The notes beneath the pieces are model-generated. The model had not been told where the DNA came from and ran no database searches. It saw only the letters and a program-made list of their open reading frames with translations. A DNA stretch of 64,000 bases from Deltaproteobacteria bacterium (GTDB lineage Bacteria > Myxococcota > Kuafuiibacteriia > Kuafuiibacteriales > Kuafuiibacteriaceae), in NCBI GenBank assembly GCA_040218735.1, contig JAVJQW010000057.1:128001-192000 (forward strand), given 5' to 3'. Of this stretch, positions 37,118 through 53,433 are shown in pieces. A program made the translations under genes and the position numbers. Position 1 is the first letter of the stretch. Each line of letters starts with the position of its first letter.

Positions 37118-38908
37118 CTAGGACGTCGCTCGATCCACGGCCTGGCACCACGCGTTCCCGGGCGCCTCTTCGAACGCCACGCTCGTCGCAAGCGCCTGGC
37201 TCTGGCGCGCCTCGCCTTCGCCGCAGGTCGACAGCACGCGCTCCACCGTGACGACCTCGGCGAGGCGTTCGAGCGCGCGCCCGATCTGTTCTCCATCGGC
37301 CGCGAGGTGCCTCGCGCGGTACCAGTCACGCGCGCGGAACATCCGCGGGCGGCCCGCCACCGTGCTCAGGCGCGTGCGTCCGTCCGGGAGCGTGAACGCT
37401 GCGACCGCGACGTTCATGCGCGGGTGGCGGTCCAAGGCGTCCGCGAGGCGCGCGGCGCAGTCGGGGTCGAGCTGGTCGCCCTCGCCCACCTCCAGGATGT
37501 ACTCCGCGCGCGCCGCATCGATGGCCGCCGACACGTCGCCGCACCGGACCTCCGTCGACACACCCACCTGCGCGAACGTCGCGGGCACCCGGCTCACGAT
37601 CGCGACCTTCGGGACCTCGAAGGTCTCTCCCGGCGCCTCGAGACGTTCGACCGGGATCTTGCTCCGCGTCATCACGCGCGTCGTTTGGGCGTCCTCCTCC
37701 CGGACGACCGCGTCGGGGTGCTCCTGGTGGTGCGCGAGCGCCTCGCGCTCGGCGATGAACCAAGCGCCGCGGCGGTAGAGACGGTAGGAGAACTCGACGT
37801 CCTCGCCACCCCACCGCTCGTACGACTCGTCGAAGCCACCGACCGCCAACGCGTCGCGCCGAAAGAACGCGAGGTTGCCGCTCGCACCGAACCGATAGCC
37901 GTACGGCTCCTTCCGAAGGTCGTGGGTCTCGTCGTAGCGCGGGATGCGCCAGTCGAGCGTCGGCGCTTCCGCCAAACGAATCGCCGCCGGAGCGAGACGG
38001 TCCGGCAGGCGCTCCACCACGCGCGAGTCCGCCTCGATCTCCTCCACGCTGACGTCGTCCGTCGCGACGAAACGTCGCCCGCCGACCGTCACCAGCGGCG
38101 CTTCGGTGACGTGGAACCACCGTGCGTGCGCAGCGAGCAGCTCCGGCGCCGGGAGCATGTCGCAGTCGAGCAGCACGATCACCTCACCCCGGGCCGCCTG
38201 CATGCCGAGGTTGCGCACCCGTGCCGCGCGGAAGCCGAGGTCCTCCTGCCGCACGACACAAACCCGGAGCCGATCGCGGAAACGACGCACGAGCAACTCC
38301 GGTTCGTCGTTGCTCCCGTCGTCCGCGATGATCACCTCGACGAGCTCCAGCGGATACGTCGACGCCGCGAGCGCGGCGAGCGTCTTCGCGAGGATCGGGC
38401 GACGGTTGTAGACCGGAATCACCACCGACACCTCGAGACGCTCCCAACCCATCGGCAGATCCGCGACCCGACGCGCGAGCGCCGAGAAGTCGTTGTCCAG
38501 CGCGAGGCCCGCCTCGCGATCCGAAGCGCGCCGCAGCGACGCCACACGCCGGCGCACGCGACGCGCCGTCGTCCGCAGCCGCGGCAGCGCCATCACCTGC
38601 TCCACCGCGAGGTCCGCAAACGCGAGCGGCGCCAAGATGCCCCGCCGCACGACGAACCGCGACGCCCCTGGCACCGCCATCGCGACCAGCTCGAGCTTGC
38701 GCTGGTGCTGCGCGACGACCACCGCGTTCGCTCGAATGGAACGCGCGGCGCGCAGCGCTCCCGCCAACCCGCACGGGAGGTCACGCCCCAACGTCAGCAG
38801 CCGCGCGCCCGGGAACGCCGTGGCCATCGCCGCACGCACCGAATCGTCGGGCGCATTGAGCAGCACGACGACGTCGCCCCGCGGTACGTCTCGCGCCCCC
38901 GGGATCAA
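37118..38908 (-). CDS. GT2 glycosyltransferase, chondroitin/hyaluronan synthase (KfoC/PmHAS)-like
   Basis: SVVIPVYNR, DDGS, RQEDLGFRA..RNLG, LDCDM, LDWR, ASGN, WGGEDVEF, HQE, followed by a degenerate second GT-A domain (RMFRARDW). Confidence 0.85.
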   Translation of the reverse strand: MIPGARDVPRGDVVVLLNAPDDSVRAAMATAFPGARLLTLGRDLPCGLAGALRAARSIRANAVVVAQHQRKLELVAMAVPGASRFVVRRGILAPLAFADLAVEQVMALPRLRTTARRVRRRVASLRRASDREAGLALDNDFSALARRVADLPMGWERLEVSVVIPVYNRRPILAKTLAALAASTYPLELVEVIIADDGSNDEPELLVRRFRDRLRVCVVRQEDLGFRAARVRNLGMQAARGEVIVLLDCDMLPAPELLAAHARWFHVTEAPLVTVGGRRFVATDDVSVEEIEADSRVVERLPDRLAPAAIRLAEAPTLDWRIPRYDETHDLRKEPYGYRFGASGNLAFFRRDALAVGGFDESYERWGGEDVEFSYRLYRRGAWFIAEREALAHHQEHPDAVVREEDAQTTRVMTRSKIPVERLEAPGETFEVPKVAIVSRVPATFAQVGVSTEVRCGDVSAAIDAARAEYILEVGEGDQLDPDCAARLADALDRHPRMNVAVAAFTLPDGRTRLSTVAGRPRMFRARDWYRARHLAADGEQIGRALERLAEVVTVERVLSTCGEGEARQSQALATSVAFEEAPGNAWCQAVDRATS

Positions 38909-40209
38909 GTCGTCCCCACGTACGCATCGAGGACCCCGGCGAGCTGCCGCGCCTGCGCGCGCCGCGAGTACTTCTCTGCGGTGCTTGCCCGCATCGCCGG
39001 GTCCTGGTCGTGCAGAGTCCCGGCTTCGAATCGTTCCAACAGCCGCACCACCGCGCGGTACGCCTCGTCCGGATCCCCGACGTTCACGAGTGTGCCGTTC
39101 TTCGCCTCGTCGATCATCGGCCCCACCACGCTCCCCTTCGGGAGCAGCGCGAGGAGGTGCCGCCCCAGCGCGAGCGCCTCGTACGCCTTACCCGGGATGG
39201 TCCCGCGGTAGAGCGGGTTCGCGTCGTTCACCATCGCGATCAACACGTCGCACCCGAGGCTGTAGCGGATGCTGTCGTCGCGCGACATGTGCCCGACGTT
39301 CTGCACCAAGTCACCGAGCCCCTTCGCCTCCACCTGCTCCGCGAGCTTCGCCGGGAATCCGGTGAACGTGACGAGTGGCGCGCGTGATCGTCCGTGCGAC
39401 TCGACGATGCGCTCCACCGTGTCGACCACCAACCCGAACGGATGGGTGTACTGCGGCGTCCCGTTGAAGTGCAGGTGAAGCCGCGCGTTCTTCGGCCGCT
39501 CGTCCGCGGCGGCGAGGAGCTCCGTCGGGATGTCGTGCCCGTTTCGTATGACGTGAAACTTCGACGCCGGCAGACCGAAGCGCTCCGCGAGGTGGTCGCG
39601 ATAACCGGGCGACACACAGACGATACCGTCCACCGTCTTCACGACACGCGCCTCCACCCGCTCGAAGAACGCCTGCTGGTAACTCGTCTGTTTGATCTGC
39701 ACGCGGTCGTCCGACCACAGGTCGCGGTAGTCCATCACCCACGGGATTCGTTTCGCCGCGCGGACGATCAACCCCGCGAGGTGCGCGACGTGCGGAGGTC
39801 CGCTCGTGAACATCGCGTCGACCTCGCCGCGCCGGACGAGCGCCGCTCCCTTCGCCGCGACCTTCATCGCCCAGTGAAACTGCGCGTCCGGGTAGTGGTG
39901 GATGAACAGCTTCCCCGCACGCACTGCCGGTCGTTTCAGTAGACGCGGGAGCGGCAACCCACCGATCGCGTCGGTGTGTTTCTGCAGGTCCCCCTGGAAC
40001 TGACTCGTGATGCGGTGCACCTCGGTCACCGCGGGGAGCTCCGCGAGGAGCGCGTCGTCGTAACGCGACCGCGACGGCGAACGGTCCGAGCACAGCACCG
40101 TCAACGCGTACCCGTTCTCCGGCAGGTACTTCGCGAAGCTGAACGCCCGCCAGATCCCCGGCCCGCTCATCGGCGGGAAGTCGAGGTTCACGTAGAGGAG
40201 TCGTCGCAC
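38905..40209 (-). CDS. GT4 (GT-B) glycosyltransferase
   Basis: DFPPMSGPG..R, TSGPP, DYRDLW, IRNG, IPGKAYE, YSR. Confidence 0.9.
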   Translation of the reverse strand: MRRLLYVNLDFPPMSGPGIWRAFSFAKYLPENGYALTVLCSDRSPSRSRYDDALLAELPAVTEVHRITSQFQGDLQKHTDAIGGLPLPRLLKRPAVRAGKLFIHHYPDAQFHWAMKVAAKGAALVRRGEVDAMFTSGPPHVAHLAGLIVRAAKRIPWVMDYRDLWSDDRVQIKQTSYQQAFFERVEARVVKTVDGIVCVSPGYRDHLAERFGLPASKFHVIRNGHDIPTELLAAADERPKNARLHLHFNGTPQYTHPFGLVVDTVERIVESHGRSRAPLVTFTGFPAKLAEQVEAKGLGDLVQNVGHMSRDDSIRYSLGCDVLIAMVNDANPLYRGTIPGKAYEALALGRHLLALLPKGSVVGPMIDEAKNGTLVNVGDPDEAYRAVVRLLERFEAGTLHDQDPAMRASTAEKYSRRAQARQLAGVLDAYVGTT

Positions 40210-40256: not shown

Positions 40257-42551
40257 TCAGCGCTTCACCGTCCACACCGACGGCGGCACATGCATCGTCA
40301 CGCCCTGCCCGAGGATCTCGACGCTCGAAGCCGGCGCGTTCAGCGTCCCGGCGAACGACGGGATGACGTCGTAGGCGATCGGCGCCGACCCCGCCCGCAC
40401 CGCGAACGTGAGCTCCACGCCCGACGCGTCGACCACGTAGCGCTCCAACGTCCCCGTGATCTGCTGCGACGCCAACGACGACGGGTCCGGCCGCACGCCC
40501 GCGGGGAGCTGATGTTTCACCGTCACCCGCGTCCCTGGCGGCGCCCCGACGCGCACCGCGACCGGGACCTTCGCCCCCACGCGAGCCGCCGCGCCGACGT
40601 CGATCTCCAACGCGAGGTCACGACGCGTCGGTGCCGGCCACGGGACGTACGACTCGAGCGTGAGCGTGAAGCCGAGCCCTGGTACCGGAGGCTGCGCCTC
40701 GACCTTCCACTGATGCGCCCCCACCGCGCCGCGCACCCGCGCGCTCAGCGCGTAACGCTCATGACGACGCTTCGGATCGATCGCACCCGACACGACCTCC
40801 TCGCCGTCCTTCGTCAGACGGATCTTCACGTTCTCGGGGATGGGCTCGTCGAACACCACCGCCACCGCGCGCAGCGCCGCGAGGTTCGTCACCGCGTCGC
40901 CGAAGCCGCCCCACGGCCGGTACGCGGAGAGAATCGCCGCGCCGAGATCCGGGAGCAGCTTCGAAGCGTCTTCACTCCCGTGTAACGCGAGCACCGCGAG
41001 GGCCGTCGCCTCGACCACCGTCGGCCGCCGACCATCCGCACGGACCACGCCCTTCGGCACCGGGAGGATCCGCGCGCCGTCCTCGCGCTGCTCGAGCGCA
41101 TCGACGACCCGCTTCCGCAGCACGTCGCGGATCGTGCCTTCCACGCCACCGCTCGCGACGATCGCCGCCGCCGTGTACGCGTCCTCGACGCGGCGCGTGT
41201 GGCGCTCGAACGCACCGCTCGCGCGCACCGTCACGGCGCGTGCACGACGCTCGCCCGCTTCGTCGTCACCCGCCGCGAGCACCGCACGCACGCCGTCCGC
41301 CGTCGCGATCAACACCCGCTGCAGCGGCCACCCCGTGCCGCCACCGAACGTCCCGTCAGGGCTCTGCGCCGACTGCAGCTGCGACGCCAGACGATCGCCG
41401 AGCCGCTTCAGCACCGGCTGCTCGGGGTGCGCCAACGCGGCCTCCACGAACAGCGCGGCGGTCGCCGGATCCGGAGCGCGCGTGTGGCGCAAGGTACGTT
41501 GCGTCGCGACGATCCGCATGCGCCGCAGGTGCTCGGGGTCGACCTTGCCCCCGAGCTTCTCCGCCAAGACACCCGCCCGCCCCGCGAGGAGCAGCGTGTA
41601 CGCATCGTCGGCCGGGCCGCCGCGCGCCATGCACGCGCCGACCTCCGAAGTCAGCAGACCGAGCGCGCCCGGGTACACGACGAGGCGCGCACGAACCGCG
41701 TCCGGGTCCGCGTTCGACGCGACGTCGATGGCGACCGTCCGCGGCGATGCGAGCGTCCCACCGTGCTCCGACTCCACGAGGCGCCCACGCGGGAAGACCT
41801 CGAACGTCCGCTCCACGGCGTCGTAGCGACCGAACCGCGCGGAGAGCTTCACCGTCCCGGGCCGGTCGGCGCGCACCCGCAGGAACCGCACCGTCGAACC
41901 GCCGCGCGGCAGCTTCACGTCGCCCGCCGCGGCCACCAGCACGGCCCCCTCGACGTTCGCCGTGAGCTTCCCGGACACCGCCTCTTCGGTGTTGTTCACG
42001 ACCTGGATCGGCACGTCGACGACGTCCGAGACCAAGAGCTGCTTCGGCACGATCGGGTCGAGGTAGACCGGCAGCGTCCCGACGAATGACGTCACCGTCC
42101 CCGCCTGTGCACCGTCGCGCGAGTGCGCCAGCGCGAGCACCCGCCACGTCGTGAGGCGGTCGGGGATCTTCACGTCGTACGATGCCTGCCCCGACGCGTT
42201 CGTCTCGACCCGCGGCTCCCACAGGAACGTCTCCGGGAACCACGCGCGGGTCGCGGGCGCAGCCTCGCCGTCTTCGTCGTCCGCCTCCGGCTCGGCCTCG
42301 GGCTCCATGTTGCCCTTGCCTTCGAGCATCAGGCTCCCGACCGACGCCTCCTTCTTCATCTTTGCGCGCGAGCGACGCGGCGCCTCCGCCGGCGCGGGTG
42401 ATCCGGGGGCCACCCCGCCGAACCCGCCTCCGCCGCGGTCGGCGGCGAGATCGAACGCCTCCTCCTGCTCCATGATGGCGGCCGGCGCCTCGTCCTTCTG
42501 CGCGCAACCGACGACCAACGTCAGGGCAACGATCCACTGAATGGACTTCAC
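40257..42551 (-). CDS. Alpha-2-macroglobulin C-terminal half, as a separate lipoprotein
   Basis: Lipobox LVVGC; disordered bait-like segment; RAWFPETFLWEP; IPDRLTTWR; TED-like helices (QSPDGTF); C-terminal LPAG...APASSVE; no CxEQ. Confidence 0.85.
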   Translation of the reverse strand: MKSIQWIVALTLVVGCAQKDEAPAAIMEQEEAFDLAADRGGGGFGGVAPGSPAPAEAPRRSRAKMKKEASVGSLMLEGKGNMEPEAEPEADDEDGEAAPATRAWFPETFLWEPRVETNASGQASYDVKIPDRLTTWRVLALAHSRDGAQAGTVTSFVGTLPVYLDPIVPKQLLVSDVVDVPIQVVNNTEEAVSGKLTANVEGAVLVAAAGDVKLPRGGSTVRFLRVRADRPGTVKLSARFGRYDAVERTFEVFPRGRLVESEHGGTLASPRTVAIDVASNADPDAVRARLVVYPGALGLLTSEVGACMARGGPADDAYTLLLAGRAGVLAEKLGGKVDPEHLRRMRIVATQRTLRHTRAPDPATAALFVEAALAHPEQPVLKRLGDRLASQLQSAQSPDGTFGGGTGWPLQRVLIATADGVRAVLAAGDDEAGERRARAVTVRASGAFERHTRRVEDAYTAAAIVASGGVEGTIRDVLRKRVVDALEQREDGARILPVPKGVVRADGRRPTVVEATALAVLALHGSEDASKLLPDLGAAILSAYRPWGGFGDAVTNLAALRAVAVVFDEPIPENVKIRLTKDGEEVVSGAIDPKRRHERYALSARVRGAVGAHQWKVEAQPPVPGLGFTLTLESYVPWPAPTRRDLALEIDVGAAARVGAKVPVAVRVGAPPGTRVTVKHQLPAGVRPDPSSLASQQITGTLERYVVDASGVELTFAVRAGSAPIAYDVIPSFAGTLNAPASSVEILGQGVTMHVPPSVWTVKR

Positions 42552-45500
42552 GGCTTCACCTTCCTCACCCACGCCTGCCAGTTCTCGACGTCCTCGGGCA
42601 TCCGCGTCCCTTCGATCACCACGAGGCGGGGATCCGTCAGCGCCAACAGATCCTGAGGCAGACGCGACAGCCGCAGCGGACGCCCGTACGCGTCGTCGAC
42701 CCGCTCACCTCTCGCCTGCACGGCGTCGCGCGCCGAGACAAACAGCTCCGCCATCCGCTTCGGCGTCATCATCTCCTCCTTGGGCGCCGCCTCCTCCCAC
42801 TTGCGCACCTGCGCGTGGAGCTCGAGCAGCACCGCGTAGAAGTGATCCGTGAGCGGCGCGATCGGGTCGAACGTCGTCGAGCCGTTCGCGCTCGTGAACA
42901 CGTCGCTCTCCGCGGGCGACGGGATGTTCGTCACCTTCAGCACCGTCGCCTCGATCGCGTTCTTCCCGCGGATACGCCCCATCGTCAGCGCCTTCGCGTC
43001 GAGCGCACCGAACGCCGCGCCGTTCATCTGCGGCAGGTCCCGTAGCGACGCCATGTCACTCGGCCCGGGCAGCGACACGAGCTGTCCGAGCGACTCGTCC
43101 ACACCGATCAAACCCACCGCAGCCGGCGTCCCGGTCTTGCCCGCGTTCGTCTGAATCGCGAGCGTCGCCGTCTCGCCCGGGCGGTACTTCGGTTTGTCCG
43201 GCGTGACGGACACCGACAGCTCGGCGTCGTCCTGGACATAAACCAGCGCACGTCCGCCGCCCCAGCTCGCTTCGAACCAGCCCTCGGCGTCCGCGGGGAG
43301 CGTGAAGCTCGCACGTTTCTTCTCGCGATCGACCTCGGTCTCCAGGTTGTGCACCGCGCTCCGCAGCCAGATCTTCTTCGGCAGCTCACCGACGAACGAA
43401 GGCCCGCGCAAGAAGCTCAGCTCCACCGCGTCGCCCGGCTTCGCGATGGTCGGCGTCGCGCGGATGCGGAACGACGGCACCGTCCCCGGCCGACGCCGCA
43501 GCGTCGTCTCGCCGATCTTCTCGCCGTCCTTGGTCTCGGCCGACACCGCCAGCTCGTACCCGAGGAACGTCGTCGGCCCGGGCTGGTTCACCTCGATCGA
43601 CGCACGCGGCCGAATCGACAACCGCGCGTAGCCGAAGTGCGGTGTCGCCGCGAGCTGCTGAACGCGATCGCGATCCGCGTCGAGGCTCGCCGCCGAGAAC
43701 CGCGCCTCGATACAGGACTGCACCCCGCGCGCGGGACGCAGGCCCGAGAACTTCGGGTCTGCGCCGAAGCGCACCGCGAGCCGACCGTTGGCACCGATCG
43801 CCCACCGCAACAAACGCGGCCACTTCGAGCCCGACCGCAGGTCCGGCGACAGGCAACGACGTGCGTTCAACGCCGCGCGCGCCAACGCGACCGACACCTC
43901 GCTCGGCACCTCCGGCATCCCGTCCGCGTCGACCTCGACGGACGGCAGGTCCGCGTTGAGCGTCACCGAGATCCGGTAGAGGCGCTCCGTCCCGCGCGGG
44001 AGCCCCTTGCCTCCGAGCTGCTTCGCGAGGCAACGCGCCGCGGGCGCATCACCGCTCGACACCCCGTTGATGCGCCCCGTGGGCTCGACCGAGAGCCCCA
44101 GCTGGAACGTGTCGCTCGACCCCGACACGAGGTGCGCGCAGTCGCCGAAGCCGTCCTTCCAGCGGCTGATCATCGTCTGGTCCGCGAGCACGTAGCCGCC
44201 GTCGATCATCTCCGTGATCGAGTCGATCACCGCCGGCGCCGGACGCGGCGGCGGTCGCACCGGCATCGCCGGCACCACGACGTTCACCGGCGAACCAGGA
44301 TCGATCTGCAGCGAGCCGACGCCGTCCTCGTCCGCCTCGACCGTAACGCCCTCGTCCGTCGTGTCCCACGCACGCTTCACGTTCAGCTTCACCCCCGCGA
44401 GCGGGGTGCCGGCCGGCGTCGTCGCGCGCAGGTACACGCGGTTGTTGAACCCGCCGACCAACCCGTCCGCGAGCTCCGTGACCACGTCGACCGCGATGCC
44501 GTCCTCGCTGAACAACAGCGACGTCGCTCCGTCGACTCGATCCCCCGACGCGTCCGTCGCGCCGAGGCTCGCCGAGACGTTCAGCGTGCCCATCAGCCGC
44601 GCCGGCACCGCGGGGAGCGTGACGTCGAACGTGCCCTGGGCATCCGCGACGAGTGACTTGGGCAACGCCGCGACCCACGTGCGCGGCGGCGGCCACTCGC
44701 CGTTCACGCGCCAGTGCAACGTGACCCGCGCGCCCGACACCGGCGCGCCGGACGAGTACCGCACGGTGCCGCGCAGCTTCGGGACGTCGTTGGGTCGGTA
44801 GAACGGACGGTTCGGCGTCGCCGACACCGAGAAGCGCGGGAGCTGGAAGGGCGCGACGCGAACCGAGACCTCGCCGTTCGCGGAGCCCGACACCCACCGC
44901 ACGCGCCACGCACCCGTCGGCGCGCCCGCGTCCAGCGGGAGGCTCCCGCTCGCGACGCCGAACGCACCCGCCTCCGCCTTCTCCTCCAAGACGAGCGTGC
45001 CCGTCGGGTCGTAGACCTCGAAGCGCCCCGGGCGTCCGTCGAGCGGCGCGAGGTCGCGCGCGCGGAGCACCGTGGCGCGGAAGTGGATCGTGTTGCCCGG
45101 CTCGTAGAGCGGGCGGTCGGTGATGACGTGGATCTTCGCCGGCGCGTACACCGCGAGCGGCACCGCGAGCTGGTGCTCGCCGAGGGGGGTCTGCACCGTC
45201 GCGCGGAGCTTGTAGTCGCCGTCGCCGAGGTCCTTCGGGAGCACGATCTGTCCGGCCACGGCGTCCCCGTCGTCCTTCCACCCCTCCTTGGGTTCGAGGG
45301 GGGTCGCCGCGTCACCGTCGAGCAGCTCGAGGCGCGCGGTGATCCGGGACAGCGACGCCGTGCGGATCTCGTCCGCCGGCCCCGTCGTGTAGTAGCCGTA
45401 CGCACCGACCTGCACCTGCCCGGGGGTCCCGCGGCGCAGGCCGTACGCGTCGATGCGCACCCCGCCGAGGACGTCCCCGCTGGGGCACTGCTCGACCGCC

Positions 45501-45610
45501 ATCCCGTACTTGAGGTAGGCGCTGATGCAGACGACGTTGCTGATGATCAGCAGCGCGATGAGCGCGACAGCGGCGCCCAGACCGAGCAGGACCTTCTTGG
45601 CTCGACTCAT
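42548..45610 (-). CDS. Alpha-2-macroglobulin N-terminal half (MG domains, BRD) with inserts
   Basis: TDRPLYEPG, FGVASG, GAW, FQLPRFSV, YSSGAPV, PDKPKYRPGE, GVDES; N-terminal hydrophobic anchor. Confidence 0.85.
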   Translation of the reverse strand: MSRAKKVLLGLGAAVALIALLIISNVVCISAYLKYGMAVEQCPSGDVLGGVRIDAYGLRRGTPGQVQVGAYGYYTTGPADEIRTASLSRITARLELLDGDAATPLEPKEGWKDDGDAVAGQIVLPKDLGDGDYKLRATVQTPLGEHQLAVPLAVYAPAKIHVITDRPLYEPGNTIHFRATVLRARDLAPLDGRPGRFEVYDPTGTLVLEEKAEAGAFGVASGSLPLDAGAPTGAWRVRWVSGSANGEVSVRVAPFQLPRFSVSATPNRPFYRPNDVPKLRGTVRYSSGAPVSGARVTLHWRVNGEWPPPRTWVAALPKSLVADAQGTFDVTLPAVPARLMGTLNVSASLGATDASGDRVDGATSLLFSEDGIAVDVVTELADGLVGGFNNRVYLRATTPAGTPLAGVKLNVKRAWDTTDEGVTVEADEDGVGSLQIDPGSPVNVVVPAMPVRPPPRPAPAVIDSITEMIDGGYVLADQTMISRWKDGFGDCAHLVSGSSDTFQLGLSVEPTGRINGVSSGDAPAARCLAKQLGGKGLPRGTERLYRISVTLNADLPSVEVDADGMPEVPSEVSVALARAALNARRCLSPDLRSGSKWPRLLRWAIGANGRLAVRFGADPKFSGLRPARGVQSCIEARFSAASLDADRDRVQQLAATPHFGYARLSIRPRASIEVNQPGPTTFLGYELAVSAETKDGEKIGETTLRRRPGTVPSFRIRATPTIAKPGDAVELSFLRGPSFVGELPKKIWLRSAVHNLETEVDREKKRASFTLPADAEGWFEASWGGGRALVYVQDDAELSVSVTPDKPKYRPGETATLAIQTNAGKTGTPAAVGLIGVDESLGQLVSLPGPSDMASLRDLPQMNGAAFGALDAKALTMGRIRGKNAIEATVLKVTNIPSPAESDVFTSANGSTTFDPIAPLTDHFYAVLLELHAQVRKWEEAAPKEEMMTPKRMAELFVSARDAVQARGERVDDAYGRPLRLSRLPQDLLALTDPRLVVIEGTRMPEDVENWQAWVRKVKP

Positions 45611-45682
45611 GGCGCGCGCATCATAGGACCGCTTCGGGGACAACGCGAACGTGCCCCCGGAGTCTGGCGCGCAGAGTGGGTC

Positions 45683-46297
45683 TTAGTCGTCGTCGAAGAC
45701 GATCTCGAAGCCGTTGTTCCCGATGAAGATGACCGTGTCGCTCTCATCCGGGATCTTGAACGCGTGCACGTCCTTTTCGGTCTTCTCGATCGCCTCACCC
45801 GGGCCGTACCGCGTCCCGTCGTCGTCGATCATCGCGCCGACCAGGATGTAGTTCACCTCGAACCCGTGGTGTTTGTGGCGCGGGAACTCGAGCCCGGCCG
45901 GGAGCGTCACGAAGCCGACGTCGGCCGCGCAGGCCGCCGGCCCGCCGTCGAAGTGGATGAGCTTGATGCCCGGGAACGGACCGTCTTCCCACTCCCCGTC
46001 GATCTTCTTGAACAGCTCGCGGACCTTCTCGACCGCGAGATCCGCGTAACGGGCGACGTCCGCCGCGAACGGGAGGAAGCGATCGCTCCCCGCCACGCTC
46101 TTCATCAGCCGCGCCTTGACGTCCGTCTCGGGCGCGACCGGTGCGAGCGCCATCGGCAGCGTCGTGAACGCGTCGTTGGCGTCCGCGACCTCCTTGGCGA
46201 GATCCGGCGACTGCTCGAGCTCTGCCTCGAACGCCTTCGTCTCCTCTTCGGAGAGCGCGCCCAGGACGTACTCGTACACGAGGTCGTGCGCGTTCAT
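45683..46297 (-). CDS. Anti-sigma factor with ChrR-like cupin domain
   Basis: YVLGALSEEE anti-sigma helix without the ZAS cysteines; cupin PRHKHHGFE..YILVG. Confidence 0.85.
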   Translation of the reverse strand: MNAHDLVYEYVLGALSEEETKAFEAELEQSPDLAKEVADANDAFTTLPMALAPVAPETDVKARLMKSVAGSDRFLPFAADVARYADLAVEKVRELFKKIDGEWEDGPFPGIKLIHFDGGPAACAADVGFVTLPAGLEFPRHKHHGFEVNYILVGAMIDDDGTRYGPGEAIEKTEKDVHAFKIPDESDTVIFIGNNGFEIVFDDD

Positions 46298-46884
46298 GCC
46301 ACACCCCCTTCGTCATCGATCAGCGCGGTCCTCAGCTGCGCGAGCCCACGCGCGACGCGGGACTTCACCGTCCCGATCGGAATGTCGACGTGCTTCGCGA
46401 TCTCCGAAGACGTCATGCCCTGGAAGTAACCGAGCTCCAGCACGGTGCGCTGGTCGGAGGGGAGCGCCGCGAGGGCGGCCCGCACCGTTCGCCGGTCGGG
46501 CGCGACCGACGGATCCTCTTCGCTCACTCCGTCCATGGCGCCGCCCTGCTCGTCCAGTACGACACGGGATCGGCCGGCCGAGCGCAAGCGATCCAGGGCG
46601 CGGCTGCGCATCCGCATGCAGAGCCACGCCCGCACCGTTCCGCGTTGGCGATCGTAGGTCTTGGCGGCCCGCCAGGCCTCCAAGAGCACGTCGTGCAGGA
46701 GATCTTCGGCTTCGCGTTGGTTACCGAGGACCCGTGTCCCGAGGGCCAACAACAGGCCCGAGTAGCGGTCGTAGAGGAAACCCAGCGCGGCCTGATCCCC
46801 GCGTCCGAGCGCCCTCACGAGCTCGACGTCGTCGGTGTCCGGACCCAAGTCCGCCCCCGACCGTGCGTCCGACACGCCGGTCAT
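46294..46884 (-). CDS. ECF RNA polymerase sigma factor
   Basis: GDQAAL..LYDRY, AEDLL, RSRALDRLR, LPSDQR, IPIGTVKSR; ATGA overlap with the anti-sigma gene. Confidence 0.93.
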   Translation of the reverse strand: MTGVSDARSGADLGPDTDDVELVRALGRGDQAALGFLYDRYSGLLLALGTRVLGNQREAEDLLHDVLLEAWRAAKTYDRQRGTVRAWLCMRMRSRALDRLRSAGRSRVVLDEQGGAMDGVSEEDPSVAPDRRTVRAALAALPSDQRTVLELGYFQGMTSSEIAKHVDIPIGTVKSRVARGLAQLRTALIDDEGGVA

Positions 46885-46994
46885 GGGCGGAACGTAGCAG
46901 CGCCCTGAACGCTGCGCCAGCCCGAGTGCAAGGGTCGTCCCCAACACGGGTGAGCTGTAGGTAACAACATGCATCGAGTTGCCGTCATGAGCAG

Positions 46995-47021
46995 TACGTC
47001 TCCCAGGCTGATGAGGATCAC
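46995..47021 (-). promoter_or_regulatory. ECF11/RpoE-ChrR-type autoregulatory promoter
   Basis: Minus strand GTGATCC-N16-CGTA upstream of the ECF gene; matches the TGATC/CGTA consensus as recalled for RpoE-ChrR-group promoters. Confidence 0.65.
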
Positions 47022-47032
47022 GAGCCTTACGA

Positions 47033-48043
47033 TTATTCGGGGGAGGCGGGGGCAACCTCGGATACGATTTCTTCGCACAACGTCCCGAGCCAAGCGTCTA
47101 TGCCCGGAGCGGCCACAATCCGCGGTATCGCGGGCCACGTGGACGCCGCCCAGGCCGCGTACGGCGGGCGCTCGGTGATGCCGCAAGCCTCGAACGCGTC
47201 TCGCAACGAACCACCGCCGAAGCGCTCGAAGATCCGATCCGCCGTCGCGTCGATGATCGCGCCGGTCTCCTCGGCGGCCGCGACGTGCCGGGCGATCAGC
47301 TCCGCGATCGCGTCGATCTCCGCGACTGCGGCGTCGTCGAGCGGACCGACGTGGAACGCGGCCGAGTGGTCCAGCACGAACCCGACGAGCTCTTTCTTCG
47401 CCTGTGCGGCGGAGGGCCCGTCGATGTGATCGACCGTGAACCTCGCCGCGCCGTCCAAGGCGCGCCGGGTGCCCTTCTCCAGGAACCGTTTGATCTCTCC
47501 CTCGAGGCGACGCTCGACCTCCTCGAACACCCGCCCCCCGACGCCGCCCGTCGCCTTCCCCCCGAGCTTGGCGAGCTTGCCGAGCGGCGAAGGCATCACG
47601 GACTGCACGATGCGCGGCACGATCGTGGAGAAGTCGCGGAGCGACCGGTAGAGCGTGTCGGCGACCAGCTCCTCCATCGCCTTTTGGGCGTACAGCGCCT
47701 GAACCCACTCCGGCGCGACCCAGCCGGGCCGAGCCGCGAGTGTCTCGATGCGGCCGCGGGCCTCCTTCGGCACCCACCGCCCGAGCGGCGCCTGGTCCTC
47801 GCGGGCGTGGGCGAGGATCAGCGGGATCACCAGCTTCGCGCTCGGACGCACCAGATCCACGAGGCGATCACTCTGCACCAGCGCGCGCGCGGCCTCGCGC
47901 CCCGCCGCGTCCGGGACGACCTCGGCGAACGGGCTGTCGAGGAGCGCCTCGAAGCCGGCTTCGAGGAGGCCCGCCCAGTCGGCCTCGGCCCGATCGTCCG
48001 TCAACCGCGCGACCAACCAGTTCTTGAGGGCATGTCCGTCCAC
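47033..48043 (-). CDS. Hypothetical all-helical protein
   Basis: 336-aa ORF with amphipathic helices; no family recognised. Confidence 0.7.
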   Translation of the reverse strand: MDGHALKNWLVARLTDDRAEADWAGLLEAGFEALLDSPFAEVVPDAAGREAARALVQSDRLVDLVRPSAKLVIPLILAHAREDQAPLGRWVPKEARGRIETLAARPGWVAPEWVQALYAQKAMEELVADTLYRSLRDFSTIVPRIVQSVMPSPLGKLAKLGGKATGGVGGRVFEEVERRLEGEIKRFLEKGTRRALDGAARFTVDHIDGPSAAQAKKELVGFVLDHSAAFHVGPLDDAAVAEIDAIAELIARHVAAAEETGAIIDATADRIFERFGGGSLRDAFEACGITERPPYAAWAASTWPAIPRIVAAPGIDAWLGTLCEEIVSEVAPASPE

Positions 48044-48094
48044 GTGCGCTCTCTATGTTTTGGGCACGGAGGGTGACAAGCTCTCACCCGCTCG

Positions 48095-49306
48095 ATGTTC
48101 GGCCCGCTGGCGTTGTCCCTGCTCGTCGCGCAAACCGCGACCACCACGATCACCTCCAGCACCGCGACGGTCGCCGCCGCACCGCGCCGCGCGCCGCCGG
48201 TGCACATCGAGCTGCCCGCGACCGGGCCGGCGATCGAGCTGATCATCTTCTCGGCGGGCCCCGAGCTGTACTCGTTCTGGGGGCACGCGGCGATCCGGGT
48301 GATCGAGCCGTCGGGCCTCGACGTCGTCTACAACTTCGGGAGCGTCGACTTCTCGGGGAACTTCCTGCTGCGGTTGCTCCGCGGGGAGGTCGAGGCGTTC
48401 GTCAGCGTGACGCCGACGCGCCGTACGCTCGAGGCGTACCGGCGCGAGGACCGATCGATCGTGCGCCGCCGCCTGGCGCTCGACGCCAAGGCTCGGCGGG
48501 AGTTGGCGGAGCGTCTGCGCGCGTACGTCGACGAAAGCGGCGGCAAGTACCGCTACCACCACTTCGTCGACAACTGCTCGACGCGGGTCGCGCTGGAGAT
48601 CGACCGGGCGTTCGACGGCGCCCTGTCTCAGGCCGTCGCGAAGGTCGAGGACCAGACCTACCGCGAGCGTGCGCTCGCGATGGTCCGGCCGAGCACCGTC
48701 CTCTACGTGTTCCTCGACATCGTCATGACGTCGGTCATCGACCGGCCGATCGACCGCTGGGAGGCGTCGTTCCTCCCCCACGTCCTCGCGACGGCGGTGG
48801 ACGAGGCGAAGGTCGACGGGCGCCCGGTCGTGGAGGAGAAGGTCCTGTTCCACAAGGGCGGCGTCGGGAACACGGAGGCCCCCTGGCCGTGGATCAAGAT
48901 CTACCTGTTGTTCGTGCTCCCGCTGGCGGCCCTCACGTACTGGCGGCCGCGCCCGGGCGCGATCGTCGCGGGGTTGGTGTTCGGGCTCCTCGGCGTCGCG
49001 ATCATGATGCTGTGGTTCCTGACGACCTACGACTTCGTGAAGAGCAACGTGAACCTCGCGCTGTTCCCGCCGACCCACCTCGCGCTCTTCTTCGCCGCGC
49101 TGAAGGCGGATCGCTTCCGACGACACGGCCGCACGGTGCGCCTCTATGTATGGGCGCACTTGCTGGTGGTCATCGCGCTCGCCGTGGTCGACGCCGCCGG
49201 GCTCTTGTCCCAGGCGATCGGCCCCGCGCTCGGGATGGCGCTCCCGATCTCTGCGGTCCTCGCGGTGGAGGTCCGGCGGATGGGCGGGGATTCCGCCCGG
49301 CGTTGA
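48095..49306 (+). CDS. DUF4105 / Lnb-like membrane protein
   Basis: ELYSFWGHAAIRV, VYNFG, YRYHHFVDNCSTR; signal peptide and about five C-terminal TMs. Confidence 0.85.
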   Translation: MFGPLALSLLVAQTATTTITSSTATVAAAPRRAPPVHIELPATGPAIELIIFSAGPELYSFWGHAAIRVIEPSGLDVVYNFGSVDFSGNFLLRLLRGEVEAFVSVTPTRRTLEAYRREDRSIVRRRLALDAKARRELAERLRAYVDESGGKYRYHHFVDNCSTRVALEIDRAFDGALSQAVAKVEDQTYRERALAMVRPSTVLYVFLDIVMTSVIDRPIDRWEASFLPHVLATAVDEAKVDGRPVVEEKVLFHKGGVGNTEAPWPWIKIYLLFVLPLAALTYWRPRPGAIVAGLVFGLLGVAIMMLWFLTTYDFVKSNVNLALFPPTHLALFFAALKADRFRRHGRTVRLYVWAHLLVVIALAVVDAAGLLSQAIGPALGMALPISAVLAVEVRRMGGDSARR

Positions 49307-49374
49307 CCGGTGGGCTACGAGGCCGCAAGCCCCGTCCTGGCCTACCTGAGCGCGAGATCGTACGCTTCCGGCCG

Positions 49375-52300
49375 GTGACGGCTCGACTCCTGCTCGTGGC
49401 GTGGGCCCTCGCGGCCGGTGGGTGTGTGTCCGCAGGCGCCCGTGCCTACTCCGCGGGCCAGGCCGCCCAGCGCGCGGGGGACCTCGACGCGGCGTTCGAC
49501 CACTACGCCGAGGCCCACCGCTCGGACCCCTCCGATCCGAGCTACCGCAGCGCCTTCGAGTCGACGCAAGCATCGCTCTTGGCGCAGCTCACCGCCCGCG
49601 GCGAGGCCCGCGAGCAGGCCGAGGAGTGGACCCTCGCCGCGACCGAGTGGCGGCGCGCCGCCGAGGTCGCGCCCGACGTGAGCAGCTACGCCGTGCGGCG
49701 GGACCTGTCGGCGCTCAAAGCGGAGGACCCGGGCCCCTACGACTGGTTCGTCGGCGTGAAGAAGGTCGCCGACGCAAACCCCGACGACACGATCGCGTCG
49801 CGCTCCCTCGCCCGCGCCAAGACCCGCGCAGTCGCTGCGCTCATGAAGACCGTCGAGGGCAAGCTGGAAGCCGGCGAGCCCGCCGCGGCGGTGGAGGCGC
49901 TCGACCGCGCGCTCGACGTCGACGAAGTGGCGGTCGATCCGCAGCTCGCAAAACGTGCACGTTCCGCGAAGGCCGAGAAGCTCGGCGACGAAGCGCTGGA
50001 GAAGGACGAGCCGTTCGTCGCGTACGAACACTTCGACCGGGCGCACGCGTACGCGCCCTCTCCCGGGCTGGAGAAGAAACGCAACCTCGCGAAGCGCAAG
50101 GCTGCGCCGATCGTGAAGAAGCTCGACCGTGCGTACGGGCTGAGCCAGCGCGGTCGGCACGCCCGGGCGCTCGTCGTGTACCGGCAGGTCGCCGAGATGA
50201 ACGGGGCACCGCCGTCCGTCGCCGAGCAGATCGCCGAGGTCGAAAAGGCGCTGATCGCCGCGGAGACGGAGAAGGCGGTGAAGCAGGCGGAGCGCGGGCG
50301 GATGTCGAGCGCTCGGCGGGCGATGCACCGGGCGATCGACGTCGCGAAGCTCGACGACGAGACGAAGACCACCGTGAAGGACGCCACGACGGACCTCACG
50401 TCGGACCGCGTCGCGGCCGGGTTGGACAAACTCGGCAAGGTGGAGCTCGTTGCGCAAGATCCCTTGCAGCTCGCGCTCGAGAAAATCGCGCACTTCGGTG
50501 TGGCGCGCGCGGTGAAGCGCGCGCAGGACATCTCGCTGAGAAACCCCGCGAAGGCGCTGGCGTTGGTCGCGGGGCTCGAGGAGTACGCGGACACGTTCCC
50601 GGAGATTCAGCAGCTCTCGCGCTCGCTGAAGGTCGACGCGTTCACCGGCACGTTGGAGGCCGCCTTCGCGGCGGCGCGGCGCGGGGACGATGCGACGGCG
50701 GCGGACACGCTGATCGGCGCGCTGCAGATGAGCGAGGCGCCGCGTTCGCTCGCGGCGCCGATCGAAGAGGCGTGCAAGCTCCTGGAGAAGGGTGACTACC
50801 TCGGCGCCGACGCCGCCTTCGATCGCGCGCTCGTCGTGGCGCCCGGATCGCGCCTCGCGACGTGGGGCATCAAGATCACCGACCACCGTCGGGACGTCGT
50901 CGCGAAGGCGGCGGTGAAGTCGATCGCGCGGGGTCGGGACGACGAGAGCTCCCTCGCGCTGCTCGAGGCGATCGCGAAGACGGAGCCCAACGACGAACAC
51001 GTGAAGGCCGGGCGCGACGCCCTCCTCGCCCGCGCCGCGCAAGAGGCGCAGCGCCAGGACGACGCGGGCTGGGCGGAGCTCGTTCGGCACGCGGCGCGCC
51101 TCACCCCCCTGTCGCCGACGGCGCGCGAAGAGCTCGAAGCGGCCCTCGCCGCGTTCACCGCCGGCGACATGAAGCAGGCGGCGGCGCGCTTCGACACGAT
51201 GAAGACGGCGGCGCCCACGGCGAAGGTCGCGAAGGTGGGCCACACCCACGCGCACCAGCGCGCCGACGAGGAGAAGAGCGCGGCGGAGCGTCGCTCGGAT
51301 CGGCTCGACGATCTGATCACGCAGAGCACGGAGGCGTCGAAGGCCGGCGACGTCCGCAAGGCGCTCCGTACGCTCAAGGCGGCGGTCGCGGTCAGCGTGA
51401 GCGCCGGGCCGTTCAAGCGCGACGTCAACGCGGGCCTCGACCTCATCACCCGCGGCGAGCCGGCGAAGGGCCTGGCGGCCGTGAAGGCGAGCGGGCTGCC
51501 CAAGAAGGATCCGCTGCACGTGCCCTCACGCGCCTACGCGATCGCGACGGCGCGGCGGCTCGTCGACCGTGCGCGTCGCGTCGCGACGAAGTCTCCCGAG
51601 CGGGCCATCGTCATCCTCAAGGCACTCGCCGCCTTCACGCAGGACGTCCCGGAGGTCACGGAGCTGGAGCGCGCCATCGAGGTCGACGCCTTCATGGCCC
51701 AGCTCGACGAAGCCGAGCGCCACGCCGCCGCAGGACGCGACGAACGCGCCGCCGCCGTGCTGACCGACGCCCTGGAGACGAGCCACGCACCGCCGAAGGT
51801 CCGGCGCACGGCGAAGCGCGGCATCGACTACCTCGCCGCGACCGAGTACCTCGCGGCCGAACGGGCCTTCGACGAAGCGCTCGCCGCCGCGCCGCAGTCG
51901 AAGCTCGCGGAGCGCGGCAAGAAGATCGCCGGAATGCGGCGCGCGATCGCGGAGCGCCGCGCGAAGGATGCGCTGGTGAAAGGCCGCGGAGATCCGGCGA
52001 AGGCCGTCGAGACCCTCGAAGCGTCGCTCGGCCTGGAGCCGGACAATGCGTTCGCGGCGGAGGGGGCCCAGGCGCTCCTCGCGCGCGCGACGACGATGGC
52101 CGACGACGCCGAAGACGAGGCGCTCGCGACCGTGCTCGGCTACGCCGCGCGGCTGATGCCGAAGGAGCGGCGCGCGTACGAGCGACTCCTCGAAGGGTTG
52201 TCGAAGCTCTCCAAACACGAACACGCCGGCGCCGAGTCCGCGTTCCGACGGGTGCGGACGATCGATCCGACGAACCCGATCGCCATGCTCGGACAGCAGG

Positions 52301-53433
52301 TCGCGAAGACGCGGTTGCTCGCGTCGTTCGAGTCGGGGCGCGTCGATGTCTCGCAGCTCGATACTGCGATGGCGGAGTCGCTCGCAGCGATGCGCAAGGA
52401 GGAGCCGGACCGCCCCGAGCCCCTCGCCGCGCTGGCCGAGCTGCTCGAGACGGCGCGGTCCAGCGCGGAGTCTGGCGACGCAAAGACGGCGGCGCGGATG
52501 CTCGGCCTCGCGATCGTCGTGGCGGGTCCGCCCCCCGCGACGAAGCGACACCTGGTGCAGGGGCAGGAGCGCCTGACGCGCAACGATCCGGTGAAGGCCG
52601 CGGCGGCCTTCGAGGCGGCCGAGGCGGACGCGCCGAACGACGAGGTGGTGAAGACGGCGATCGCGATCGCGGAGCGAGCGCGGCTGAATCGCCTGATCGA
52701 TGCGCTCGTGCGCGGCAACGACCGGCGCGCGCAGAAGGCGCTCGAGGAGCGCCTCGCGTCGAAGGCCGGCGCACGGACGAAGAAGGAGATCTTCGAGACC
52801 GCGGAGCGCGAGGCGTACGAGGGCCGTGAGGACCGCGCGGCGCGCCTGTACGACGCACTCAACGCGTTCACGGAGGACGCGGCGGTGAAGAAGGCGACGG
52901 CGGAAGGGAACCGCCTCCTCGCCAAGCGTCAGTACGACGACGCGGTGGCGGCGTACACGACCGCGCAGAAGGCGGGTGATGCGCCCGTGGCGAAGAAGGG
53001 CGAGAAGCTCGCGTTCTCGCGCCGGGTCGCGCTGATGTTCACCGAGGTCGCGAAGCTGAAGAACCTGACGGACCTCGACGCCGGCGCGAAAGCGACCCAG
53101 ACGCTGCTCGGCATCGATCCGTACGACAAGGACGGCATCGCGGCGCTCGATGCGGCGCTCGACCACGCGGCGGATCGCTGGGAGGCGAAGGACCGCGCCA
53201 CGGCGCTGCGCGCGCTCGAGGCCGCGGTGATCGCGAGCGACGCGGAGCGCGAGCTGATGCCGGGCGTGAAGGCGCTCGCCGCCAACGACGCGAAGGGGGC
53301 CGCGGAGGTGTTCGCGAAGGCCGAGCAGCTCCTGGTCCCGGCGGAGGACGAGGTCGACTCCAGCCTGAAGAAACTCCTCGGGCACCAGCGCAAAGTCGCC
53401 GCCCGCGGTAAAGCGTTTGCCACGGACGAGTGA
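49375..53433 (+). CDS. Giant TPR/solenoid lipoprotein (about 1350 aa)
   Basis: Lipobox AGGC; continuous TPR-like helices; internal duplication of about 350 aa. Confidence 0.8.
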   Translation: MTARLLLVAWALAAGGCVSAGARAYSAGQAAQRAGDLDAAFDHYAEAHRSDPSDPSYRSAFESTQASLLAQLTARGEAREQAEEWTLAATEWRRAAEVAPDVSSYAVRRDLSALKAEDPGPYDWFVGVKKVADANPDDTIASRSLARAKTRAVAALMKTVEGKLEAGEPAAAVEALDRALDVDEVAVDPQLAKRARSAKAEKLGDEALEKDEPFVAYEHFDRAHAYAPSPGLEKKRNLAKRKAAPIVKKLDRAYGLSQRGRHARALVVYRQVAEMNGAPPSVAEQIAEVEKALIAAETEKAVKQAERGRMSSARRAMHRAIDVAKLDDETKTTVKDATTDLTSDRVAAGLDKLGKVELVAQDPLQLALEKIAHFGVARAVKRAQDISLRNPAKALALVAGLEEYADTFPEIQQLSRSLKVDAFTGTLEAAFAAARRGDDATAADTLIGALQMSEAPRSLAAPIEEACKLLEKGDYLGADAAFDRALVVAPGSRLATWGIKITDHRRDVVAKAAVKSIARGRDDESSLALLEAIAKTEPNDEHVKAGRDALLARAAQEAQRQDDAGWAELVRHAARLTPLSPTAREELEAALAAFTAGDMKQAAARFDTMKTAAPTAKVAKVGHTHAHQRADEEKSAAERRSDRLDDLITQSTEASKAGDVRKALRTLKAAVAVSVSAGPFKRDVNAGLDLITRGEPAKGLAAVKASGLPKKDPLHVPSRAYAIATARRLVDRARRVATKSPERAIVILKALAAFTQDVPEVTELERAIEVDAFMAQLDEAERHAAAGRDERAAAVLTDALETSHAPPKVRRTAKRGIDYLAATEYLAAERAFDEALAAAPQSKLAERGKKIAGMRRAIAERRAKDALVKGRGDPAKAVETLEASLGLEPDNAFAAEGAQALLARATTMADDAEDEALATVLGYAARLMPKERRAYERLLEGLSKLSKHEHAGAESAFRRVRTIDPTNPIAMLGQQVAKTRLLASFESGRVDVSQLDTAMAESLAAMRKEEPDRPEPLAALAELLETARSSAESGDAKTAARMLGLAIVVAGPPPATKRHLVQGQERLTRNDPVKAAAAFEAAEADAPNDEVVKTAIAIAERARLNRLIDALVRGNDRRAQKALEERLASKAGARTKKEIFETAEREAYEGREDRAARLYDALNAFTEDAAVKKATAEGNRLLAKRQYDDAVAAYTTAQKAGDAPVAKKGEKLAFSRRVALMFTEVAKLKNLTDLDAGAKATQTLLGIDPYDKDGIAALDAALDHAADRWEAKDRATALRALEAAVIASDAERELMPGVKALAANDAKGAAEVFAKAEQLLVPAEDEVDSSLKKLLGHQRKVAARGKAFATDE

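Follow-up and report, generated by a model that had tools for sequence, protein, structure and literature searches.

The locus described here raises the question of whether a protease-trap gene found in two pieces is a damaged gene or a protein genuinely encoded as two chains and, in the latter case, what such a protein could do. It lies in a stretch of 64,000 nucleotides (nt) from the genome of a Deltaproteobacteria bacterium of the phylum Myxococcota (positions 128,001 to 192,000 of contig JAVJQW010000057.1, assembly GCA_040218735.1), referred to below as the window, which means the whole stretch of DNA that was analysed. In a region with a G+C content of ~70%, two long minus-strand open reading frames (ORFs) occupy positions 40257..45610 and encode the N-terminal (gene 1) and the C-terminal (gene 2) halves of an alpha-2-macroglobulin (A2M). 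The reading favoured here, with moderate confidence, is that both genes constitute a conserved two-gene, thioester-less A2M of Myxococcota, the chains of which would assemble into a membrane-tethered periplasmic trap or shield acting non-covalently. The A2M family of protease traps is itself known; the two-chain variant is undescribed in the literature searched, as no description of a split or a myxobacterial A2M was found in the open-access literature, with most subscription journals lying outside the search. The features of the pair, in window positions and with the evidence for each in brackets, are the following (aa, amino acids):

42548..45610, minus strand: gene 1, beta-chain-like N-terminal half of A2M (ORF and translation, 1020 aa)
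40257..42551, minus strand: gene 2, alpha-chain-like C-terminal half of A2M (translation, 764 aa; Pfam A2M)
45533..45604, minus strand: N-terminal stretch of gene 1 read as a transmembrane signal-anchor, aa 3-26 (AlphaFold2 helix)
43565..44257, minus strand: family-specific alpha/beta insert of gene 1, aa ~452-682 (unaligned in hhalign against canonical A2Ms)
42551..43105, minus strand: tail of gene 1, aa 836-1020, with GVDES and a helical C-terminal domain (model helices)
42548..42551, minus strand: GTGA overlap of the gene 2 start and the gene 1 stop (sequence)
42504..42551, minus strand: lipoprotein signal peptide of gene 2, aa 1-16, with lipobox LVVGC and Ala at +2 (sequence)
42252..42503, minus strand: disordered linker of gene 2, rich in A/G/P/E, aa 17-100 (predicted local distance difference test, pLDDT; low conservation)
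40839..41669, minus strand: TED-like alpha/alpha domain of gene 2 without a thioester, aa 295-571 (VIA structure match)
41616-41648, minus strand: equivalent of the thioester site in gene 2, aa 302-312 (within the TED-like domain)

Gene 1 runs from an ATG at 45610 to a TGA at 42548-42550, an alternative TTG start at 45643 giving a form of 1031 aa, and its product begins with MSRAKKVLLGLGAAVALIALLIISNVVC and ends with ...GTRMPEDVENWQAWVRKVKP. Pfam recognises MG2 (170-262, E 2.7e-24), the end of A2M_BRD (801-852, E 5.9e-6), and CarboxypepD_reg, all in the numbering of the 1031-aa form. The GVDES motif occupies residues 836-840, and residues 839-1018 are mostly helical in the AlphaFold2 model, with a pLDDT of 72-96. 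Gene 2 starts with a GTG at 42551-42549, which has three bases in common with the gene 1 stop, and extends to 40257; a purine-rich AGGAAGG is found a few bases 5' of this GTG, within the end of gene 1. The N-terminus of its product reads MKSIQWIVALTLVVGC and continues with AQKDE, a lipobox typical of a lipoprotein signal. This signal is followed by a disordered linker of ~85 residues (pLDDT <50 for residues 15-95), the WFPETFLW motif at residues 104-111, where the Pfam A2M match starts (E 1.5e-14), and then MG/CUB-type beta domains, the TED-like domain, and C-terminal beta domains. Mean pLDDT is 90.2 for the gene 1 model and 86.1 for that of gene 2. NCBIfam holds no match for either protein. 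A scan for promoters and terminators in the region yielded no promoter-like site and six terminator-like sites (3.7 expected), none of them between both genes. All the elements on which the original prediction had relied are thus present in the translations, the Pfam matches, and the models, i.e., the anchor, MG domains, GVDES motif, and helical tail of gene 1, as well as the GTGA overlap, lipobox, disordered segment, and FPETFLW motif of gene 2.

Where the break lies in the A2M fold was read from profile alignments with hhalign against a canonical profile (A3) made from ten single-chain A2Ms holding the motif P-x-G-C-x-E-Q. Columns 68-860 of the gene 1 profile fall on template positions 101-647 (E 7.2e-48, probability 100%), and columns 98-775 of the gene 2 profile on positions 871-1580 of 1583 (E 8.5e-58, probability 100%). 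The canonical stretch left unaligned between both halves is the segment of the bait region, the place of which is taken here by the helical tail of gene 1 and the signal and linker of gene 2. In comparisons with solved structures, the match to the gene 2 profile begins at residue 698 of human A2M, 84 of the C5 alpha chain, and 10 of the C3c alpha' fragment.

Structure comparisons agree with this location. Foldseek retrieves A2M, C3, and C5 for gene 1 (E 1e-23), the beta chains of C3/C4/C5 being matched with TMt values of 0.45-0.48, while the top matches of gene 2 are the alpha chains of C5 and C3 (E 7e-31, i.e., ~1e-30). In VIA, residues 105-762 of gene 2 superpose on residues 744/765-1474/1497 of C3 (Z 26-27), and also on 767-1513 of C5, on 734-1468 of native human A2M, and on TEP1 (Z 26-28 overall). 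The TED-like domain (aa 295-571) matches the thioester (TE) domain of C5, C4dg, and C3d over 256-266 residues, with Z values of 21-24 and a root-mean-square deviation of 3.2-3.5 Å. The profile and structure alignments therefore place the break in the bait region, at the point where complement proteins divide into beta and alpha chains. Two features of the superfamily are thus recognisable in the pair, the serial MG beta-sandwich domains (by Pfam, Foldseek, and hhalign) and, in gene 2, the alpha/alpha-toroid of the TED in the C-terminal half. The division of the chains between the halves of a same MG domain, as in C3/C4/C5, also appears to be present. A bait that is continuous in one polypeptide is not, the coding sequence being broken at this point in all of the loci compared.

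These loci amount to 20, i.e., 19 fetched from other genomes in two sets (10 + 9) plus the window. A first search, which covered 41 related genomes, revealed full-length gene 2 orthologues with 39-81% identity at 10 places in nine other genomes, in open frames of 815-1042 aa. A wider sample of 301 genomes of the phylum, with a match threshold of E<=1e-40, yielded a gene 2 orthologue in 109 of them (one, G195, unpublished), including 9/19 in family f1, 88/115 in f9, 7/11 in f17, and 3/8 in f26. In the 19 fetched loci, as in the window, a gene 1 homologue immediately precedes the gene 2 homologue, in a different frame. In 20/20 loci, gene 2 begins with an ATG or a GTG that forms a 4-nt overlap (ATGA or GTGA) with the TGA of gene 1, and in all of them a signal or an anchor follows that start. 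The break, complete with start codon, upstream purine-rich stretch, and export signal, is common to the 20 loci, which show 38-81% identity and represent five or more families within the phylum.

Protein searches give the same picture. The best 120 of 724 matches to gene 2 are 687-819 aa long, bear the source label 'alpha-2-macroglobulin family protein', and come from Archangium, Cystobacter, Hyalangium, and Myxococcaceae; the best 120 of 629 matches to gene 1 are 820-1055 aa long, are labelled 'MG2 domain-containing protein', and include one from Kofleriaceae. The named sources cover the classes Myxococcia and Polyangia of the NCBI taxonomy. In these sets, 120/120 gene 2 homologues contain an RxWFPET motif, the median position of its first residue being 117, and the C-terminal residue is Pro in 113/120 gene 1 homologues. 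When the tail of gene 1 (aa 850-1020) was searched with HMMER against 1.84 billion representatives, 161 matches were obtained, and none of the 150 listed exceeds 1066 aa; in those of ~1000 aa, the tail ends at most ~7 residues from the C-terminus. Two separate proteins that are 98% identical, P0003 and P0149, have been obtained from independent assemblies.

A fused ORF in close relatives, which would have spoken for an assembly error or a pseudogene, has not been found in the loci, the 301 genomes, or the protein searches. The longest stop-to-stop frame in those genomes has 1578 aa, against the ~1800 that a fusion needs, and three of the four genomes with the longest frames (G196, G233, and G090, not G195) were fetched and hold two genes. 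The search for longer proteins gave 26 matches, of which only P0123 (1801 aa, 49% identity) is close. This candidate was rejected as a natural fusion: it leaves the frame of gene 1, continues out of frame over an Arg-rich stretch, and after this reaches an intact internal lipoprotein signal, so that it is a frameshift read-through. Two of the loci contain other irregular copies. In L022 (G006:C2), the frame changes within gene 1, and in L030 (G010:C57), a second paralogue, anchor and body are encoded in different frames, the change lying where the linker has a C-rich run. These broken copies, L022, L030, and P0123, which may be due to sequencing errors or to real decay, show what a decayed pair looks like, and the conserved junction differs from them. 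An assembly error or a pseudogene thus does not explain the split, and the recurrence of the two-gene arrangement across myxobacteria identifies it, therefore, as a real two-chain variant. In this respect the original prediction was right in proposing a genetically two-chain A2M, split in the bait region and made of two adjacent genes (20/20 loci), and also in rejecting a frameshift in view of the export signal of gene 2, to which the 4-nt overlap can now be added.

The second feature that distinguishes the pair is the loss of the thioester. The CxEQ motif is found in 0/120 gene 2 homologues and does not occur anywhere in gene 2 itself. When the profiles are aligned with hhalign, a gap just after a conserved RGG takes the place of the canonical P-x-G-C-x-E-Q loop. 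The absence of a thioester had been anticipated, together with the statement that the GCxEQ position reads EVGACMARGG. The stretch indeed exists (SEVGACMARGG, residues 302-312 of gene 2), although its Cys, conserved in only 7 of the 73 aligned homologues, is not the thioester Cys, because the canonical loop aligns to the gap after RGG; to judge by the alignment, the loop has been deleted as a whole. The same genome holds two canonical single-chain A2Ms, open frames of ~2000-2100 aa with lipoprotein-like N-termini and intact CTEQ and CAEQ motifs, one near position 5847 of contig C5 and the other near 112919 of contig C33 of G000; no match to the transglycosylase family PF00912 occurs on either contig. 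Since these two single-chain proteins bear CxEQ, the split pair is an additional and distinct class of paralogue.

Regarding the binding of both halves, three lines are available, all of them indirect: the constant adjacency and translational coupling of the genes, the conservation of the segments that flank the break, and the fact that these segments belong to one continuous fold in single-chain relatives. In either protein, conservation is highest in the flanking segment, with scores of 0.76-0.91 for the last 50 residues of gene 1 and 0.79-0.95 for residues 101-165 of gene 2 (both proteins have means of 0.61), the linker of gene 2 being the least conserved part (0.13-0.38). A complex prediction with residues 793-1020 of gene 1 and 90-764 of gene 2 gave interaction scores (ipSAE) of 0.54, 0.53, and 0.48, the best of three controls reaching 0.00, with a contact agreement of at least 64% among runs and a partner pLDDT of at least 80; its grade is 'weak support'. 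The mark applied is passed by 58/80 solved complexes and 2/110 mismatched pairs, and passes at or below 0.60 comprise seven of those 80 as well as both mismatches. In addition, the pass may reflect memory of the solved two-chain structures of C3 and C5.

Gene 1 holds, between MG domains, an insert of ~230 residues without counterpart in canonical A2Ms (hhalign). Four of its Cys residues are invariant (491, 527, 586, and 633). The pattern of the insert resembles two similar sub-modules, each with an invariant Cys pair on helices (491/527 and 586/633). Pfam returned nothing at E<=0.1 for the insert (aa 455-690), for the tail (aa 830-1020), or for orf336, a conserved neighbouring ORF described below, and scores of the insert in the protein atlas (<=0.80) are at the level of chance.

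Each chain carries an export signal of its own. The N-termini of gene 1 homologues consist of a charged stretch, ~20 hydrophobic residues, and then S-x-x-x-C...C-P-D-G, the two cysteines (Cys28 and Cys42) being invariant in 71 sequences. The residue that precedes the first Cys is V, I, F, L, M, or T in the 45 homologue N-termini printed, and a bulky residue before the Cys does not fit the lipobox rule; we read this N-terminus as an inner-membrane signal-anchor and not as a lipobox. For gene 2, a PROSITE-like pattern taken from general knowledge served as the lipobox rule, and the 120 homologues are distributed among 50 with a lipobox, 47 with a hydrophobic helix and no lipobox, a class that pools uncleaved anchors and cleavable signal peptides, and 23 with a short lipobox-like or truncated N-terminus. 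A signal is present in every homologue with a seemingly complete N-terminus. For the helix-type signals, only anchoring in the inner membrane or cleavage is possible. Among the 50 with a lipobox, the residue at +2 is Lys in 17, Ala in seven, and Ser in six. In Myxococcus xanthus, the available part of PMC3222651 reports Lys at +2 in 8/12 inner-membrane lipoproteins and describes no signal that marks those of the outer membrane.

What is conserved is therefore a separate export signal on chain 2, and not a particular membrane. A check proposed with the original prediction, conservation of the split point and the lipobox in homologues, has accordingly a divided outcome, as the split is found in 20/20 loci and the lipobox in 50/120 homologues. 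The proposal that both halves sit in different membranes is not supported as a general feature, given the 47/120 helix-type signals and the 17/50 lipoboxes with Lys at +2, and the variation of the chain 2 signals therefore disfavours a general trans-envelope arrangement.

Among the known systems, the complement proteins C3, C4, and C5 offer the closest parallel to the break. The position in the fold at which their chains separate is the same, with gene 1 corresponding to the beta chains and gene 2 to the alpha chains. C3/C4/C5 are made as one precursor that is then cut by a protease, and C3 and C5 are already two-chain proteins before activation, a state compatible with a later proteolytic trigger. 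The term 'pre-cleaved' used in the original prediction is consequently right in that the protein is genetically two-chain, and it should not be taken to mean 'pre-activated', as C3 and C5 are two-chain beforehand. The pair differs from complement proteins in having separate genes and export signals, while C3/C4/C5 have anaphylatoxin and C345C domains, are soluble, and retain the thioester in C3 and C4. Pfam shows no ANATO or C345C/NTR match in the pair. The thioester motif is also missing from some accepted members of the superfamily, such as C5 and MagD.

Bacterial A2Ms have been described, in the part of PMC5764988 available, as two single-chain types, with and without a thioester. Those of Type I, according to the same source, are single-chain, hold CxEQ, and are often encoded beside pbpC. 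The pair shares with this type (ECAM/YfhM of Escherichia coli and Sa-A2M of Salmonella) the architecture of MG domains and the character of a periplasmic lipoprotein tethered to the membrane; YfhM and Sa-A2M chains are matched by the gene 1 profile with E values of 2e-9 to 3e-9, and Foldseek lists 4ziq, 5a42, and 4u48. Contrary to Type I proteins, it is split, its thioester loop is deleted, and the window holds no transglycosylase gene. Type II proteins (MagD of Pseudomonas aeruginosa, YfaS type) resemble the pair in the absence of CXEQ. MagD is a periplasmic, inner-membrane-associated A2M homologue that, as far as the accessible portions of PMC5764988 and PMC3735191 report, traps a protease non-covalently without CXEQ and is shortened in vivo by cleavage, from 165 kDa to a 100-kDa form similar in size to the product of gene 1 (~1020 aa). 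MagD is one polypeptide without a Cys or anchor of its own, held at the membrane by MagB and encoded in a six-gene operon, whereas the present A2M is divided over two genes that both specify a signal or anchor, and none of their neighbours is conserved throughout the 20 loci.

Following these comparisons, it can be postulated that both chains are exported separately via Sec and assemble 1:1 in the periplasm, where both polypeptides would contribute to completing the domain that the bait interrupts in single-chain A2Ms and that is divided between the chains in C3 and C5. The complex would remain tethered to the membrane and, by analogy with Type II, MagD-like A2Ms, could non-covalently trap proteases that enter the periplasm, or shield against them. 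Its most likely protease-sensitive trigger would be the flexible linker of chain 2.

Several points weigh against such a trap. Both proteins are known here from genes and predicted models alone. The pair lacks the continuous bait by which the classical trigger is defined; the type of anchor on chain 2 varies among lineages; and the 230-residue insert, without a fold relative in Pfam or the atlas, could point to a different activity. The complex prediction, with the grade given above, returned no contacts, and the completion of the shared domain by both chains would follow from homology, as it was not seen in a model. Finally, no Mag-like partner or other neighbour is conserved across the 20 loci, in an analysis in which the Mag families were not searched by name; therefore, the analogy with MagD is drawn from a single feature, the shared lack of the thioester.

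Alternatively, the tether of chain 2 could itself be the bait. The linker between the anchor and WFPETFLW sits at the position of the bait in single-chain A2Ms and of the anaphylatoxin segment that C3 and C5 lose when activated, and on this coincidence a tentative model can be built, in which the cut of a protease entering the periplasm would free an alpha'-like N-terminus and trigger a C3-like rearrangement, the protease being trapped at the membrane with no thioester involved. We regard this elaboration as possible, although distinctly less probable than the trap in its general form. If true, the heterodimer would stay anchored via chain 1, and the logic of its activation would be nearer to complement than to a classical A2M.

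A different function has also been considered, that of a constitutive 'post-cleavage' binding protein, i.e., a static periplasmic module that binds or shields a ligand other than a protease, perhaps by means of the Cys-containing insert. Such a module would be consistent with a discontinuous bait and a deleted thioester loop, as well as with a conserved insert of 230 residues with four invariant Cys that canonical A2Ms lack; moreover, the two canonical single-chain A2Ms of the same genome (CTEQ and CAEQ) could do the trapping. However, gene 2 retains the MG, CUB, TED, and C-terminal beta domains, aligned end to end with the canonical protein, and the two-chain state of C3 and C5 leaves room for a later proteolytic trigger. 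MagD, furthermore, traps a protease without any thioester, as stated in the portion of PMC5764988 available. A static module is unlikely.

The scaffold advanced in the original prediction is still less probable. According to this proposal, the inner membrane would anchor chain 1 and the outer membrane chain 2, and the complex would be a structural element bridging the periplasm, and not a trap. In the window, chain 2 is a lipoprotein with Ala, and not Lys, at +2, so that an outer-membrane anchor is possible in the light of what PMC3222651, in the part available, reports; the ~85-residue disordered linker could also be long enough to span the periplasm. Nevertheless, the helix-type signals and the lipoboxes with Lys at +2 make an outer-membrane location of chain 2 impossible or unlikely in many lineages, the rest of chain 2 is conserved despite the variation of its signal, and no outer-membrane or peptidoglycan-binding module was detected by Pfam. 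As for the idea that one A2M gene has been broken by sequencing error or frameshift, or is joined by programmed ribosomal frameshifting, it can be practically discarded in spite of the frameshifted copies that exist (P0123, L022, and L030), as the same break with its start codon, purine-rich stretch, and export signal recurs in every locus, independent assemblies hold P0003 and P0149 as separate proteins, the bases flanking the overlap vary among loci with no common slippery heptamer in the junctions printed (read by eye), and an internal lipobox would be senseless in a fused chain.

The two-chain family would represent a third bacterial A2M architecture, widespread in Myxococcota (109/301 sampled genomes), in which the genome itself encodes a break that A2M, MagD, and C3/C5 receive from proteases or furin-like enzymes. 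It would thus provide a natural system for studying whether a covalently continuous bait is needed in the native state, how chains assemble after separate secretion, and how a thioester-less trap is triggered, questions relevant to the evolution and mechanism of both A2M and complement. A caution for annotation also follows, as the halves are labelled apart, as 'MG2 domain-containing protein' and 'alpha-2-macroglobulin family protein'.

The genetic context of the pair varies. On the minus strand, the order of genes is orf336, an extracytoplasmic function (ECF) sigma factor, a ChrR-like cupin anti-sigma factor, gene 1, gene 2, and two glycosyltransferases (GT4 and GT2):

45683-47055 and 47033-48043, minus strand: ECF sigma factor, ChrR-like cupin anti-sigma factor, and conserved 336-aa ORF, directly upstream of the pair
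37118-40209, minus strand: GT4 and GT2 glycosyltransferase genes, 47 bp downstream of gene 2

Each of the three upstream genes recurs in 5/20 loci, all of them in the window's own family, which hints at stress-regulated expression in this lineage. The clustering of neighbours from the 20 loci yielded none present in more than 5/20, and orf336 has no Pfam match. GT4 is common only to the closest relative (L021). As the original prediction had noted in mentioning that pbpC is not nearby, no gene with the transglycosylase domain PF00912 exists in the window; the nearest of the seven in the genome is ~72 kb away on the same contig. On the plus strand, an ORF of 1792 aa without Pfam match (48055-53433) is followed by a gene for a Ser/Thr protein kinase of 910 aa (53430-56162).

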